Assembly: GCF_058153355.1 (NCBI RefSeq) | Contig: NZ_CM177019.1 | Direction: 5' to 3' (one strand) | DNA: 64,000 nucleotides | Shown: one piece after another, positions 3,794-46,226 of the stretch | Position numbering within the stretch: the stretch's first letter is position 1 | Layout of the letters: each line of letters starts with the position of its first letter | Translations under genes and position numbers: made by a program | Notes under the pieces: model-generated | Seen by the model: the letters and a program-made list of their open reading frames with translations, nothing else | Databases searched by the model: none | Told to the model about the DNA's origin: nothing

Positions 3794-4540
3794 ATGTTGC
3801 TTAGCATAATCACTGTCGCGTTTCGTAACCTCGAAGGGATAGTCAAAACACATGCCTCGCTGGCGCATCTGGCGCAGGCGGACGATATCAGCTTCGAATG
3901 GATTGTTGTCGATGGCGGTTCCAACGACGGTACCCGTGAGTATCTGGAAAATCTCAATGGTATCTATAACCTACGCTTTGTCAGCGAGCCAGATAACGGT
4001 ATCTACGACGCCATGAACAAGGGCATTGCGATGGCACAAGGCAAGTTCGCGTTGTTTCTCAACTCGGGCGATATTTTTCATCAGGATGCCGCAAATTTTG
4101 TCCGTAAGTTAAAAATGCAAAAAGATAACATGATGATCACCGGCGATGCGCTGCTGGATTTTGGCGACGGGCATAAAATTAAGCGTAGTGCTAAACCGGG
4201 CTGGTATATTTATCACAGCCTGCCCGCCAGTCATCAGGCGATATTTTTCCCGGTATCCGGTTTGAAAAAATGGCGTTATGACCTGGAATATAAAGTTTCT
4301 TCTGATTACGCGCTGGCAGCTAAAATGTATAAAGCAGGTTATGCATTTAAAAAACTCAATGGCCTGGTGTCTGAATTTTCCATGGGTGGGGTATCAACCA
4401 CCAATAATATGGAATTGTGTGCTGACGCGAAAAAAGTCCAACGGCAGATATTACATGTGCCTGGCTTCTGGGCAGAATTATCCTGGCATTTACGCCAGCG
4501 TACTACCTCAAAGACGAAAGCCTTATATAACAAAAGCTGA
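3794..4540 (+). CDS. wcaE: colanic acid biosynthesis glycosyltransferase (GT2)
   Basis: 248-aa ORF with GT2 motifs ([10 protein letters not shown]); conserved cluster position. Confidence 0.85.
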
Positions 4541-10461: not shown

Positions 10462-10553
10462 GCAATGAATGCGAAACCGCGGTGTAAATAACGACAAAAA
10501 TAAAATTGGCCGCTTCGGTCAGGGCCAACTATTGCCTGAAAAAGGGTAACGAC

Positions 10554-13455: not shown

Positions 13456-14934
13456 ATGAGCTTACGTGAAAAAACCATCAGCGGCGCGAAGTGGTCGGCG
13501 ATTGCCACGGTGATCATCATCGGCCTCGGGCTAGTGCAGATGACCGTGCTGGCGCGGATTATCGACAATCACCAGTTCGGCCTGCTGACCGTGTCGCTGG
13601 TGATCATCGCGCTGGCAGATACGCTTTCTGACTTCGGTATCGCTAGCTCGATTATTCAGCGAAAAGAAATCAGTCACCTTGAACTCACCACGTTGTACTG
13701 GCTGAACGTCGGGCTGGGGATCGTGGTGTGCGTGGCGGTGTTTTTGTTGAGTGATCTCATCGGCGACGTGCTGAATAACCCGGACCTGGCACCGTTGATT
13801 AAAACATTGTCGTTGGCGTTTGTGGTGATCCCCCACGGGCAACAGTTTCGCGCGTTGATGCAGAAGGAGCTGGAGTTCAACAAAATCGGCATGATCGAAA
13901 CCAGCGCGGTGCTGGCAGGCTTCACTTTTACGGTGGTTAGCGCCCATTTCTGGCCGCTGGCGATGACCGCGATCCTCGGTTATCTGGTCAATAGTGCAGT
14001 AAGAACGCTGCTGTTTGGCTACTTTGGTCGAAAAATTTATCGCCCCGGTCTGCATTTCTCGCTGGCGTCGGTGGCACCAAACTTACGTTTTGGTGCCTGG
14101 CTGACGGCGGACAGCATCATCAACTATCTCAATACCAACCTTTCAACGCTGGTGCTGGCGCGTATTCTCGGCGCGGGCGTGGCAGGGGGATACAACCTGG
14201 CGTACAACGTGGCCGTTGTGCCGCCGATGAAACTGAACCCAATCATCACCCGCGTGTTGTTTCCGGCATTTGCCAAAATTCAGGACGACACCGAAAAGCT
14301 GCGCGTCAACTTCTACAAGCTGCTGTCGGTGGTGGGGATTATCAACTTTCCGGCGCTGCTGGGGCTGATGGTGGTGTCGAATAACTTTGTACCGCTGGTC
14401 TTTGGTGAGAAGTGGAACAGCATTATTCCGGTGCTGCAATTGCTGTGTGTGGTGGGGCTACTGCGCTCAGTGGGTAACCCGATTGGTTCGCTACTGATGG
14501 CGAAAGCGCGGGTCGATATCAGCTTTAAATTCAACGTATTCAAAACATTTCTGTTTATTCCGGCGATTGTTATTGGTGGGCAGATGGCGGGCGCAATCGG
14601 CGTCACGCTCGGTTTCCTGCTGGTGCAGATTATCAACACCATTCTGAGTTACTTCGTGATGATTAAACCGGTGCTCGGTTCCAGTTATCGCCAGTACATC
14701 CTGAGTTTGTGGCTGCCGTTTTATCTCTCGTTGCCGACGCTGGGGGTCAGTTATGCGCTGGGCATTGTGCTGAAAGGGCAACTGGCGCTGGGGATGCTGC
14801 TGGCGGTGCAAATAGCCGCGGGCGTGCTGGCGTTTGTGGTGATGATTGTGCTGTCGCGCCATCCGCTGGTGGTGGAAGTGAAGCGCCAGTTTTGTCGCAG
14901 CGAAAAAATGAAAATGCTTTTACGGGCGGGGTGA
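13456..14934 (+). CDS. wzxC: colanic acid repeat-unit flippase (Wzx family)
   Basis: 492-aa polytopic membrane ORF directly after wcaJ. Confidence 0.85.
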   Translation: MSLREKTISGAKWSAIATVIIIGLGLVQMTVLARIIDNHQFGLLTVSLVIIALADTLSDFGIASSIIQRKEISHLELTTLYWLNVGLGIVVCVAVFLLSDLIGDVLNNPDLAPLIKTLSLAFVVIPHGQQFRALMQKELEFNKIGMIETSAVLAGFTFTVVSAHFWPLAMTAILGYLVNSAVRTLLFGYFGRKIYRPGLHFSLASVAPNLRFGAWLTADSIINYLNTNLSTLVLARILGAGVAGGYNLAYNVAVVPPMKLNPIITRVLFPAFAKIQDDTEKLRVNFYKLLSVVGIINFPALLGLMVVSNNFVPLVFGEKWNSIIPVLQLLCVVGLLRSVGNPIGSLLMAKARVDISFKFNVFKTFLFIPAIVIGGQMAGAIGVTLGFLLVQIINTILSYFVMIKPVLGSSYRQYILSLWLPFYLSLPTLGVSYALGIVLKGQLALGMLLAVQIAAGVLAFVVMIVLSRHPLVVEVKRQFCRSEKMKMLLRAG

Positions 14935-14963
14935 GTTGTTGTTTTCGGTTCCGACAACGGTTG

Positions 14964-15250
14964 CCGGGTGCAGCGTAAAACGCCTTATCCGTCCTACGGT
15001 TCTGTGCTCGGGACCTGTAGGCCTGATAAGACGCGTCAGCGTCGCATCAGGCACTGAATGCCGGATGCGGCGTGAACGCCTTATCCGTCCTACGGTTCTG
15101 TGCTCGGGACCTGTAGGCCTGATAAGACGCGTCAGCGTCGCATCAGGCACTGAATGCCGGATGCGGCGTGAACGCCTTATCCGGCCTACGGTTCTGTGCT
15201 CGGGTCTTGTAGGCCTGATAAGACGCGCCAGCGTCGCATCAGGCAAAAAG
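14964..15250. repeat. tandem array of about three 96-bp REP/BIME units
   Basis: Unit gccggatgcggcgtgaacgccttatccg(t/g)cctacggttctgtgctcggg(a/t)c(c/t)tgtaggcctgataagacgcg(t/c)cagcgtcgcatcaggc repeats with 96-bp period (starts 15060 and 15156, partial copy before). Confidence 0.8.
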
Positions 15251-15305
15251 CGGCAACGAAAAAAACAAACGCAGCCTCACCTGGCATCAAATTTATGAGG
15301 AAAAA

Positions 15306-17813: not shown

Positions 17814-19208
17814 ATGCCATTTAAAAAACTCTCCCGACGTACCTTCCTGACGGCAAGCTCCGCGCTTGCCTTCCTCCATACCCCTTTCGCCCGTGCACTT
17901 CCCGTCCGACAAAGCGTTAATATCAGTGACTACAATCCGCACGACTGGATCGCCTCATTTAAGCAGGCCTTCAGCGAAGGGCAAACGGTCGTCGTGCCTG
18001 CCGGATTTGTTTGTGACAACATTAATACCGGTATCTTCATCCCTGCCGGTAAAGCAATACGCATCCTCGGTAGCCTGCGCGGCAACGGCAAAGGGCGATT
18101 TGTCTTACAGGACGGCAGCCAGGTGACAGGGGAGAAGGGCGGCAGTATGCATAACATCACCCTGGATGTGCGTGGTTCTGACTGCACCATCAAAGGGCTG
18201 ACTATGAGCGGCTTTGGGCCGGTAACGCAGATTTACATCGGGGGAAAAAACAAACGGGTCATGCGTAACCTGACCATCGATAACCTCACTGTCAGCCACG
18301 CTAATTACGCCATTTTACGCCAGGGATTTCATAACCAGATTATCGGTGCCAACATCACCAATTGTAAGTTCAGTGACTTACAGGGCGACGCCATTGAATG
18401 GAATGTGGCGATTAACGACAGTGATATTTTGATATCTGACCATGTCATCGAGCGCATCAACTGTACCAACGGCAAAATCAACTGGGGCATCGGCATAGGT
18501 CTTGCGGGAAGCACTTATGATAATAATTACCCGGAAGACCAGGCAGTGAAAAACTTTGTCGTGGCGAATATCACGGGATCGGATTGTCGGCAGTTGATCC
18601 ATGTTGAAAATGGTAAACATTTTGTTATTCGTAATATCAAAGCCCGCAATATCACGCCGGATTTCAGTAAGAAAGCAGGTATTGATAACGCCACAGTCGC
18701 TATTTACGGTTGTGACAATTTCGTGATTGATAATATTGAAATGATTAATAGCGCCGGAATGTTAATCGGCTATGGGGTAATTAAAGGCAAATATCTCTCG
18801 ATACCGCAAAATTTCCGAGTGAATAATATTCAACTGGATAACACCCATCTTGCTTATAAATTGCGCGGCATCCAAATCTCCGCCGGGAATGCTCTCTCCT
18901 TTGTGGCACTGACTAACATTGAGATGAAGCGTGCGTCGCTGGAGTTACACAACAAACCGCAACATCTTTTTATGCGAAATATCAAGGTGATGCAGGAATC
19001 CTCAGTTGGACCCGCATTGAGCATGAACTTCGACATGCGCAAAGACGTTCGCGGCGTCTTTATGGCGAAAGAAGAAACACTGCTGTCTCTTGCAAATGTT
19101 CATGCGGTGAATGAAAGAGGGCAAAGCTCCGTCGATATCGACAGGATTAATCACCATATTGTTAATGTGGAAAAGATTAACTTTAGATTGCCGGAACGGT
19201 GGGAGTAG
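17814..19208 (+). CDS. wcaM: colanic acid biosynthesis protein WcaM (signal peptide, beta-helix-like)
   Basis: 464-aa ORF with an N-terminal signal-like segment ([19 protein letters not shown]); last gene of the cluster. Confidence 0.8.
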
Positions 19209-19365
19209 ATTTGCGACCATTCATAAACTTACTGGATATAATGTTCTAAAAGATTATAATCCTCACACTAACTGTTAAAGCTGGGGCTGGGCAGCATTGA
19301 CTACTCAGGGAAGGTACTCATCTTTATCTTGTGTTTCTTACGTAACAACCAGACTAAAGTGATTT

Positions 19366-20361
19366 ATGAACGATAACGTTTTGCTCATAGGAGCTTCCGG
19401 ATTCGTAGGAACCCGACTACTTGAAACGGCAATTGCTGACTTTAATATCAAGAACCTGGACAAACAGCAGAGCCACTTTTATCCAGAAATCACACAGATT
19501 GGCGATGTTCGTGATCAACAGGCACTCGACCAGGCGTTAGCCGGTTTTGACACTGTTGTGCTACTGGCAGCGGAACACCGCGATGACGTCAGCCCTACTT
19601 CTCTCTATTATGATGTCAATGTTCAGGGTACCCGCAATGTGCTGGCGGCCATGGAAAAAAATGGCGTTAAAAATATCATCTTTACCAGTTCCGTTGCTGT
19701 TTATGGTTTGAACAAACACAACCCTGACGAAAACCATCCACACGACCCTTTCAACCACTACGGCAAAAGTAAGTGGCAGGCAGAGGAAGTGCTGCGTGAA
19801 TGGTATAACAAAGCACCAACAGAACGTTCATTAACCATCATCCGTCCTACCGTTATCTTCGGTGAACGCAACCGCGGTAACGTCTATAACTTGCTGAAAC
19901 AGATCGCTGGCGGCAAGTTTATGATGGTGGGCGCAGGGACTAACTATAAGTCCATGGCTTATGTTGGAAACATTGTTGAGTTTATCAAGTACAAACTGAA
20001 GAATGTTGCCGCAGGTTATGAGGTTTATAACTACGTTGATAAGCCAGACCTGAACATGAACCAGTTGGTTGCTGAAGTTGAACAAAGCCTGAACAAAAAG
20101 ATCCCTTCTATGCACTTGCCTTACCCACTAGGAATGCTGGGTGGATATTGCTTTGATATCCTGAGCAAAATTACGGGCAAAAAATACGCTGTCAGCTCAG
20201 TGCGCGTGAAAAAATTCTGCGCAACAACACAGTTTGACGCAACGAAAGTGCATTCTTCAGGTTTTGTGGCACCGTATACGCTGTCGCAAGGTCTGGATCG
20301 AACTCTGCAGTATGAATTCGTCCATGCCAAAAAAGACGACATAACGTTTGTTTCTGAGTAA
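19366..20361 (+). CDS. gne: NAD-dependent sugar epimerase, probable UDP-N-acetylglucosamine 4-epimerase
   Basis: 331-aa ORF; Rossmann motif LLIGASGFVGTRLL; short-chain epimerase YxxxK (YGKSK); sits between wcaM and galF as gne does in some E. coli serogroups. Confidence 0.7.
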   Translation: MNDNVLLIGASGFVGTRLLETAIADFNIKNLDKQQSHFYPEITQIGDVRDQQALDQALAGFDTVVLLAAEHRDDVSPTSLYYDVNVQGTRNVLAAMEKNGVKNIIFTSSVAVYGLNKHNPDENHPHDPFNHYGKSKWQAEEVLREWYNKAPTERSLTIIRPTVIFGERNRGNVYNLLKQIAGGKFMMVGAGTNYKSMAYVGNIVEFIKYKLKNVAAGYEVYNYVDKPDLNMNQLVAEVEQSLNKKIPSMHLPYPLGMLGGYCFDILSKITGKKYAVSSVRVKKFCATTQFDATKVHSSGFVAPYTLSQGLDRTLQYEFVHAKKDDITFVSE

Positions 20362-20603
20362 TGCAGGCGAGTCAGAGAAAAAAGGACCAGGTTGGACTAC
20401 GATTATTCGGAAAGAGGTACTGATTAAATTATCAGTATGTGGATTTCCGAGTAATCCGAGTAACCCAGATGCTGATGGTGTGTAGTGTTATCGTAAGGTT
20501 TAATCAAAGTTATGCGGAACTAAGCTTTGCTATATAGCCATAACGCTTGGCTAACCTATGGCAATAATTTACGCACTATCAGCCACTTAGAGGTAGGAAA
20601 ATA

Positions 20604-21497
20604 ATGACGAATTTAAAAGCAGTTATACCGGTAGCAGGTCTTGGGATGCATATGTTGCCTGCCACTAAGGCGATTCCCAAAGAGATGCTACCGATCGTCG
20701 ACAAGCCAATGATTCAGTACATTGTTGACGAGATTGTGGCTGCAGGGATCAAAGAAATCCTCCTGGTAACTCACGCGTCCAAGAACGCGGTCGAAAACCA
20801 CTTCGACACCTCTTATGAATTAGAATCTCTCCTTGAGCAGCGCGTGAAGCGTCAACTGTTGGCGGAAGTACAATCTATCTGTCCGCCGGGCGTGACCATT
20901 ATGAACGTGCGTCAGGGTGAACCTTTAGGTTTAGGCCACTCCATCTTATGTGCGCGACCTGCCATTGGTGACAACCCATTTATCGTGGTACTGCCAGACG
21001 TAGTGATCGACGACGCCAGCGCCGACCCGCTGCGCTACAACCTTGCTGCCATGATTGCGCGCTTCAACGAAACGGGCCGTAGCCAGGTGCTGGCAAAACG
21101 TATGCCGGGTGACCTCTCTGAATACTCCGTCATCCAGACCAAAGAACCGCTGGACCGTGAAGGTAAAGTCAGCCGCATTGTTGAATTTATCGAAAAACCG
21201 GATCAGCCGCAGACGCTGGACTCAGACATCATGGCCGTAGGTCGCTATGTGCTTTCTGCCGATATTTGGCCGGAACTAGAACGCACTCAGCCTGGTGCAT
21301 GGGGGCGTATTCAGCTGACTGATGCTATTGCCGAACTGGCGAAAAAACAGTCCGTTGATGCCATGCTGATGACTGGAGACAGCTACGACTGCGGTAAAAA
21401 AATGGGCTATATGCAGGCGTTTGTGAAGTACGGACTGCGTAACCTGAAAGAAGGGGCGAAGTTCCGCAAAGGTATTGAGAGGTTGTTGAATGATTAA
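20604..21497 (+). CDS. galF: UTP-glucose-1-phosphate uridylyltransferase regulatory paralog
   Basis: 297-aa ORF; nucleotidyltransferase N-terminus [31 protein letters not shown]; conserved position 5' of the O-antigen cluster. Confidence 0.9.
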
Positions 21498-21746: not shown

Positions 21747-21785
21747 TAGTGTACTGGTAGCTGTGGAGCCAGGGGCGGTAGCGTG
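21747..21785 (+). promoter_or_regulatory. JUMPstart element containing ops (GGCGGTAG), RfaH-dependent antitermination site
   Basis: tagtgtactggtagctgtggagccaggggcggtagcgtg matches the 39-bp JUMPstart consensus; ops GGCGGTAG at 21774-21781; about 60 bp upstream of the first O-antigen gene. Confidence 0.8.
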
Positions 21786-43097: not shown

Positions 43098-43145
43098 TTT
43101 CTTATTCCTCTTTAAACCTGTCTGAACCGTTAACAACCGCGCAAT

Positions 43146-43182
43146 AAAAAAGCCCCCGGAAGGTGATCTTCCGGGGGCTTTC
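43146..43182 (-). terminator. his attenuator terminator hairpin
   Basis: On the - strand: gaaagcccccggaagatcaccttccgggggctttttt between hisL and hisG. Confidence 0.8.
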
Positions 43183-43242
43183 TCATGCGTTCATGCACCA
43201 CTGGAAGATCTGAATGTCTTCCAGCACACATCGCCTGAAAGA

Positions 43243-43293
43243 CTAGTCAGTATGATGGTGATGATGGTGGTGTTTAAATTGAACGCGTGTCAT
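43243..43293 (-). CDS. hisL: his operon leader peptide
   Basis: 16-codon ORF on the - strand, MTRVQFKHHHHHHHTD, with seven consecutive His codons just upstream of the attenuator. Confidence 0.9.
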   Translation of the reverse strand: MTRVQFKHHHHHHHTD

Positions 43294-44160: not shown

Positions 44161-44985
44161 ATGAAAAAGGTCGCAATTGTCGGGTTAGGGTGGTTAGGCA
44201 TGCCGCTGGCGATGTCACTTTCAGCGCGAGGCTGGCAAGTCACCGGGAGTAAAACCACACAAGATGGTGTCGAAGCGGCCCGAATGAGTGGCATTGATAG
44301 CTATCTGCTTCGCATGGAGCCTGAGTTAGTTTGCGATTCTGACGATCTGGATGCCCTGATGGATGCCGATGCGCTGGTCATTACGCTTCCGGCACGTCGT
44401 AGCGGCCCCGGCGATGAGTTCTATTTACAAGCGGTACAAGAGTTAGTGGATAGCGCGCTGGCCCATCGTATTCCCCGCATTATTTTTACCAGCTCGACAT
44501 CTGTCTATGGCGACGCGCAAGGCACGGTGAAAGAAACCACCCCGCGTAATCCGGTGACCAACAGTGGACGAGTATTAGAAGAACTCGAAGACTGGCTGCA
44601 CAATTTACCCGGTACTTCGGTCGATATTCTGCGTCTTGCGGGCCTGGTCGGACCGGGACGTCATCCCGGACGCTTCTTTGCCGGAAAAACCGCCCCTGAT
44701 GGTGAACATGGTGTTAATTTAGTCCATTTAGAAGATGTTATTGGCGCTATCACTCTGTTGTTACAGGCACCTAAAGGCGGACACATCTATAATATATGTG
44801 CGCCAGCTCACCCTGCGCGTAATGTTTTCTATCCGCAGATGGCCCGTTTATTGGGGCTGGAACCTCCGCAGTTCAGAAATAGTCTGGACAGCGGCAAAGG
44901 TAAGATTATTGATGGCAGTCGGATTTGTAATGAACTGGGATTTGAATACCAGTATCCCGATCCGCTGGTAATGCCGCTGGAGTAA
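44161..44985 (+). CDS. yeeZ: NAD(P)-binding Rossmann-fold protein
   Basis: 274-aa ORF; VAIVGLGWLGMPLA motif; conserved neighbour of yefM-yoeB. Confidence 0.8.
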   Translation: MKKVAIVGLGWLGMPLAMSLSARGWQVTGSKTTQDGVEAARMSGIDSYLLRMEPELVCDSDDLDALMDADALVITLPARRSGPGDEFYLQAVQELVDSALAHRIPRIIFTSSTSVYGDAQGTVKETTPRNPVTNSGRVLEELEDWLHNLPGTSVDILRLAGLVGPGRHPGRFFAGKTAPDGEHGVNLVHLEDVIGAITLLLQAPKGGHIYNICAPAHPARNVFYPQMARLLGLEPPQFRNSLDSGKGKIIDGSRICNELGFEYQYPDPLVMPLE

Positions 44986-45960: not shown

Positions 45961-46226
45961 AGAAAAATTATTATGACAAGCCTCTCATTCTCTTGTCATT
46001 TCCCCCCCATTTAGGCACAATGCGCCGCTGTCAAAAAATGACTAAAAACCGACGTTTAATTAGCGTCGGTTATTTTTTGCTTCAAACCAATCATTCATAC
46101 CAAGAGGCCGGGCTTCGTACCGGATAGATATTTACTAAAAATCGACAGTTGTTGTCGCTGAGGAATCCAAAAAAATGGGGCAATTTTTTGCTTACGCGAC
46201 GGTTATCACCGTAAAGGAGAATGACC

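Follow-up and report, generated by a model that had tools for sequence, protein, structure and literature searches.

How does an O-antigen locus come to depend on a gene that lies outside it, and on which carrier does the product of that gene act? The question arises from a stretch of Escherichia coli DNA of 64,000 nucleotides (the window; all coordinates below refer to it unless another sequence is named), in which a gene for an extended short-chain dehydrogenase/reductase (SDR) lies between wcaM and galF. The initial annotation had described an epimerase gene of the kind found in serogroups that need UDP-GalNAc. Our analysis points to a different substrate: the gene is very probably gnu, which encodes an NAD-dependent SDR that turns the undecaprenyl-pyrophosphate-linked GlcNAc (UndPP-GlcNAc) made by WecA into UndPP-GalNAc for the O124 repeat unit. 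The identity of the gene, its locus, the motifs and fold of its product, the type of the neighboring O-antigen cluster and the lack of both gne and an initiating-transferase gene were established in the present work.

The wcaM–galF interval carries an additional gene

The open reading frame is intact, begins with ATG and encodes 331 amino acids (19366..20361, plus strand). It is a real gene rather than a chance frame, as judged from the match of its product to the Pfam Epimerase family (PF01370, E = 8.5e-31), and RefSeq gives the coding sequence the same start and end in a 100%-identical genome. Both neighbors scored above their NCBIfam equivalog cut-offs: wcaM, which closes the colanic acid cluster (17814..19208, plus strand; NF007517, 1015.9 bits against a cut-off of 808, with RefSeq in agreement in the identical genome), and galF, by convention the left boundary of the O-antigen locus (20604..21497, plus strand; TIGR01105, 686.6 bits against 659.2). 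The placement of a 331-residue SDR-type epimerase between these two genes in the initial annotation was thus exact to the coordinate. The separate upstream spacer that had been ascribed to the gene measured 157 bp (19209..19365, plus strand) and was identical to the O157:H7 sequence at 157/157 positions; the spacer between gnu and galF (242 bp; 20362..20603, plus strand) was identical to it at 238/242.

In K-12 MG1655, galF follows wcaM directly, as had been stated, with only 174 bp between them. By blastn against MG1655, homology to the window ended at 19222, 14 bases past the wcaM stop codon, and restarted at 20587, 17 bases before the galF start. The segment in between (19223..20586, plus strand), which comprises gnu and its two spacers, has no K-12 counterpart: 1364 bp here occupy the position of 142 bp of unrelated K-12 spacer. 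We found no remnant of gnu in the K-12 wcaM–galF spacer, and no direct or inverted repeats or traces of mobile elements flanking the segment at 19222/20587. With flanks of this kind, the description of the gene as "inserted" holds for the layout and does not extend to a demonstrated insertion event.

Among 5426 complete E. coli genomes, 1323 carried the gnu segment, O157:H7 and O104:H4 included, nearly always at 95% identity or more. One route of gnu loss was seen in strain G6/7 (L003:1347-3233), where an IS1 element occupies the place of the 3′ end of wcaM and of the entire gnu gene, and ~234 bp immediately before galF survive.

Expression signals place gnu apart from the RfaH-dependent operon. 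A search with Rfam found no JUMPstart RNA before gnu; the element was found after galF only (RF01707, 21747..21785, plus strand; 54.7 bits against a gathering score of 35), and it contains the ops element GGCGGTAG (21774-21781, plus strand, by sequence match). JUMPstart and ops show where the RfaH-dependent O-antigen operon begins, downstream of both gnu and galF. Since gnu lies upstream of these signals, it is outside that operon and is expressed apart from it. The 157-bp spacer holds a sigma-70-like site, TGGATA-16-TATAAT (19233-19260), with 10 of 12 consensus matches, in a region where the count of such sites was not above that in shuffled sequences. Transcription of gnu probably starts from a promoter of its own in this spacer, for which the site is a candidate that we offer as a lead only. 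No terminators were found between wcaM, gnu and galF.

Several other features of the upstream part of the window were recorded. Within the colanic acid cluster, the wzxC–wcaK spacer holds a tandem pair of naRNA4 (CssrE)/REP-type elements (15020-15090 and 15116-15186, minus strand; Rfam, 72.9 and 79.7 bits), which gives rise to repetitive spurious open reading frames at 14920-15298, and an Rfam algC RNA motif (10500-10549, plus strand; 76.6 bits) lies directly 5′ of the cpsG/manB-like gene. Around gnu and over the O-antigen cluster, strain VL7S7 matches the window at 100% identity; its wcaE is interrupted by IS1 (L001:810-2332), and the window's wcaE is intact (3794-4540), so the two derive from related but distinct genomes.

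The encoded protein is identical to Gnu of O157:H7

The protein corresponds to WP_000999466.1, and its exact sequence occurs on at least 1000 public contigs. The same accession is present in E. coli O157:H7 strain 8368 (100% amino-acid identity), and the calculated mass, 37141.8 Da, agrees with the 37141 given for Z3206 in a proteome study of O157:H7. At the nucleotide level, the gnu copies of the window and of strain 8368 differ by 8 synonymous and 0 non-synonymous changes, and the O-antigen clusters downstream are of different types, O157 in the one and O124 in the other. RefSeq, NCBI and UniRef name the product N-acetyl-alpha-D-glucosaminyl-diphospho-ditrans,octacis-undecaprenol 4-epimerase. 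The corresponding activity, UndPP-GlcNAc 4-epimerase, is EC 5.1.3.26. [quoted passage not shown]

The assignment of this gene has changed over time. In O55 and O157, the gene that precedes galF was originally called gne, on the prediction that it encodes a UDP-GlcNAc 4-epimerase (PMC3682973). In the account of Rush 2010 given by Cunneen 2013 (PMC3682973), the O157 enzyme was without activity on UDP-GlcNAc and turned WecA-made UndPP-GlcNAc into UndPP-GalNAc. Such secondary accounts of one laboratory's assays, done on the identical protein, are our source for the specificity of Gnu, which is therefore derived from the literature, as is the O124 structure discussed below. They leave little room for a need for UDP-GalNAc as the reason for the gene, which the initial annotation had proposed, because the enzyme reported there as inactive on UDP-GlcNAc is identical to the one encoded here.

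Cunneen 2013 (PMC3682973) placed these enzymes in a separate clade D and named the gene gnu, and later reviews and structural papers make the same assignment. In E. coli, Salmonella, Citrobacter, Cronobacter and others, gnu precedes the OPS cluster (PMC3682973). Of 115 E. coli serogroups, 104 have or lack the gene as their O-unit structure predicts, with GalNAc as the first sugar as the criterion (PMC3682973). The exceptions comprise 7 serogroup cases in which an expected gnu or gne is missing and 10 in which an unneeded one is present (PMC3682973). We regard the correlation of gnu with initial GalNAc as strong, not absolute. Serogroup O86 requires both gne1, whose protein is identical to that of O157, and a separate GalE-clade gene, gne2, for its second GalNAc (PMC3682973), which indicates that the two genes are not redundant. 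In serogroups that have non-initial GalNAc, a separate gne of the GalE clade lies within the galF–gnd cluster (PMC3682973, PMC7685785).

Gnu falls outside the GalE clade

The first alternative to be weighed is a classical Gne, that is, a soluble UDP-GlcNAc 4-epimerase that supplies UDP-GalNAc, with WecA putting GalNAc-1-P directly on undecaprenyl phosphate. The fold of the protein is nearest to those of UDP-hexose and UDP-GlcNAc 4-epimerases, several homologue entries still bear the names "UDP-N-acetylglucosamine 4-epimerase" or "UDP-glucose 4-epimerase", and the original gne assignment was made on the same logic (PMC3682973). Even so, we consider this reading very unlikely. Against the NCBIfam GalE equivalog TIGR01179, Gnu scored 71.4 bits, where the cut-off is 262.3, and only residues 5-170 were matched; BLASTP against K-12 GalE gave 30% identity with 17% gaps. 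Membership of the Gne/GalE clade was rejected on these grounds, together with the position of the gene upstream of galF. The reported inactivity of the O157 enzyme on UDP-GlcNAc, at the remove of the secondary account cited above, the requirement of O86 for gne1 in addition to gne2, and the separate clade D (PMC3682973) all argue in the same direction.

The best profile neighbors of Gnu were HpnA (95.5 bits over residues 4-298; cut-off 367.65) and Pfam 3Beta_HSD (E = 3e-27), that is, SDRs of the 3-beta-HSD type. The PDB held no solved structure of Gnu, its best sequence match being NSDHL (6jkg; E = 2e-17, ~21% identity). The substrates of SDRs of the HpnA, 3-beta-HSD and NSDHL kind are lipids or associated with lipids, in keeping with a lipid-linked sugar as the substrate of Gnu; however, the chemistry of these enzymes is dehydrogenation/decarboxylation or unknown, they have no link to O antigens, and the scores are far below the family cut-offs.

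Gnu and the Gne enzymes of the GalE clade (Gne of Y. enterocolitica O:8, Gne2 of E. coli O86) share the extended SDR fold, the GxxGxxG and S/YxxxK motifs and the NAD-dependent epimerization of a HexNAc at C4. They differ in the carrier of the substrate, which is UDP for Gne and undecaprenyl pyrophosphate for Gnu, and in location, gne being found within the galF–gnd cluster for non-initial GalNAc and gnu upstream of galF. The comparison with Gne/GalE suggested in the initial annotation as a check on specificity therefore comes out divided: the HexNAc C4 epimerization is the same, and the carrier is not. GnaB/WbpP (clade B of Cunneen 2013, PMC3682973) is likewise an SDR 4-epimerase that was formerly also called "Gne". 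Unlike Gnu, it acts on UDP-GlcNAcA, and GalNAcA is made by it together with a UDP-GlcNAc 6-dehydrogenase. We rejected this assignment, as the annotation of the identical genome shows no UDP-GlcNAc 6-dehydrogenase gene in this cluster and the O124 structure is without GalNAcA.

A marginally less probable variant is a bifunctional enzyme that acts mainly on UndPP-GlcNAc and also carries out a slow UDP-GlcNAc/UDP-GalNAc or UDP-Glc/UDP-Gal exchange that would matter in some backgrounds. Promiscuity of the GalE type is common, single-residue switches between GalE and Gne have been described (PMC3682973), and nothing in the sequence speaks against nucleotide binding. The UDP-GlcNAc assay, as relayed by PMC3682973, was nevertheless negative, and an additional gne is found in serogroups with internal GalNAc, a gene they would not need if UDP-GalNAc came from Gnu (PMC3682973, PMC7685785).

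[quoted passage not shown] Its assignment to the "O124/O164 family" rests on how RefSeq names wzx and wzy in a reference genome with 100% identity across 10.5 kb. Besides wzx and wzy, the cluster contains glf, four glycosyltransferase genes and two genes for a sugar of the lactyl-ether type, one F420-hydrogenase-like and the other an intact member of the pyruvyl-transferase family. A cluster of the O124/O164 type was found in only 5 of the 5426 complete E. coli genomes.

Published work separates the two serogroups by the pyruvyl-transferase-family gene, which is intact in O124 and carries a frameshift in O164. In the window this gene is intact (24700-25836, 378 amino acids), and it is likewise intact in strains VL7S7 and WEC; in TUM18780 and DETEC-C31 it is split in two (L006:5703-6838 and L009:5703-6838 compared). 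The intact state fits that published for O124, which indicates that the window has the O124 form.

The O124 repeat unit has the main chain ->3)-Galp-(b1->6)-Galf-(b1->3)-GalpNAc-(b1-> with the side chain GlcLA-(b1->6)-Glc, and it contains a single main-chain GalNAc and no GlcNAc (PMC7685785). The tie to a GalNAc-containing O unit that the initial annotation had drawn for the epimerase gene is borne out by this structure. Four glycosyltransferases match the four sugars that are added to a primer made elsewhere, in a unit of five sugars. The RefSeq annotation of the identical genome lists no initiating transferase in the galF–gnd cluster, and tblastn with GalE found no gne or other GalE-clade gene in the 64-kb window. 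A unit with one GalNAc and without GlcNAc, in a cluster with neither an initiating transferase nor gne, is exactly the case for gnu and not for gne.

Separately, tblastn with Gnu gave one other weak SDR match in the window (E = 6e-4), a yeeZ-like gene (44161..44985, plus strand). Together with the sRNA STnc240 (46006-46080, plus strand), it belongs to the ordinary E. coli features downstream of the his operon; the His operon leader (43144-43267, minus strand) is a further such feature.

The presence of gnu in this type of serogroup is already known: in Table S2 of PMC3682973, O124 and O164 appear among the serogroups that require gnu, with the entry "gnu present and correct", and their lack of gne is as expected. 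We found gnu at the wcaM–galF locus in all four O124/O164 genomes inspected. That gnu survives at a recombination hot spot as a hitch-hiking remnant, with no part in the O antigen here, is in our view highly improbable, for although it lies outside the RfaH-controlled operon and serogroups with an unneeded gnu or gne exist (PMC3682973), its frame is intact with solely synonymous changes relative to O157, as under purifying selection, the O124 unit needs an initial GalNAc for which the window encodes no other source, and the gene is kept in each of those four genomes. As a gnu gene upstream of galF paired with a GalNAc-containing O124 unit, the locus does link O-antigen synthesis to a gene outside the galF–gnd interval, in line with what had been proposed for it.

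Motifs and fold are those of a 4-epimerase and suggest a membrane-facing surface

Gnu has the motifs of an extended SDR: G9-xx-G12-xx-G15, S108 and Y132-xxx-K136. Across 102 homologues, down to 33% identity, G9, G12, S108 and Y132 were invariant and G15 and K136 nearly so. The same 102 sequences also revealed near-invariant motifs that are specific to the family: AAEHRDDV at 68-75, R160-P161, K195-S196, N222-Y223-x-D225-x-P227, and R280/K283. An AlphaFold2 model (pLDDT 96.4, pTM 0.93) has the epimerase fold, and the solved structures nearest to it are NAD-dependent UDP-sugar 4-epimerases (TM 0.72-0.77, ~20% identity). Fold and catalytic motifs alike do not discriminate between a UDP-linked and an UndPP-linked substrate.

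No transmembrane segment was found in Gnu, only a modest hydrophobic helix. Its most hydrophobic stretch, residues 249-266, corresponds to a helix at 253-270 in the C-terminal domain of the model; P252 and D264 are nearly invariant, and Gly or Ala is kept at positions 256 and 260. We dropped the idea that this helix is an insertion relative to GalE, as the pairwise alignment is ambiguous there. In the O157:H7 proteome study, Z3206 was detected with ~25-fold enrichment in insoluble fractions along with other O-antigen enzymes, which we infer to agree with membrane association of Gnu. Judging from the model and the conservation pattern, helix 253-270 and R280/K283 may together form a candidate surface that engages the membrane and undecaprenyl pyrophosphate.

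These features can be placed in a proposed pathway. On the cytoplasmic side of the inner membrane, WecA, encoded elsewhere in the ECA cluster, would use UDP-GlcNAc to load undecaprenyl phosphate with GlcNAc-1-P. In Gnu, the bound NAD+ would take the hydride from C4 of the lipid-linked GlcNAc while Tyr132, aided by Ser108 and Lys136, would take the proton of the 4-OH, to give a 4-keto intermediate. The keto sugar would then reorient, and return of the hydride to the opposite face would yield UndPP-GalNAc. To this primer, the four glycosyltransferases of the O124 cluster would add Galf, Galp, Glc and glucolactilic acid, and the finished unit would be flipped by Wzx and polymerized by Wzy.

Gnu-like domains occur in a wider family and in fusion proteins

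An exhaustive search for relatives of Gnu yielded 365 clusters at 50% identity (E <= 1e-30), with close relatives (81-92% identity) across Enterobacterales. Among metagenomic sequences we found five fusion proteins with a Gnu-like SDR domain (P0248, P0140, P0189, P0147 and P0188), at 39-48% identity to Gnu, a distance at which orthology of function is not established. In P0248 (L007:6001-7944), on a contig of 9.8 kb, a Bac_transf domain (monotopic phosphoglycosyl transferase) precedes the SDR domain, and neighboring PglD-, DegT- and PglF-like genes form a bacillosamine-like cluster. P0140 and P0189 join the SDR domain to a GT4 domain, and P0147 and P0188 have the same two domains in the order GT4 and SDR. 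From their domain content, these fusions suggest that the Gnu-like SDR is coupled, outside Enterobacterales, to the earliest lipid-linked steps by which repeat units are assembled at the membrane. Such coupling fits a lipid-linked substrate but is no proof of one. It is possible, though on balance we rate it rather unlikely, that two things hold together: that the hydrophobic helix (249-266 in the sequence, 253-270 in the model) and R280/K283 hold undecaprenyl pyrophosphate at the membrane, and that epimerization of carrier-bound sugars on the lipid extends far outside Enterobacterales.

Implications for annotation and for O-antigen typing

[quoted passage not shown] To annotate the gene as gne, or its role as UDP-GalNAc supply, would repeat an assignment that was corrected between 2010 and 2013. 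Because gnu lies outside the galF–gnd interval and outside the JUMPstart-controlled operon, typing and glyco-engineering of GalNAc-initiated O units must take gnu along with the galF–gnd cluster.
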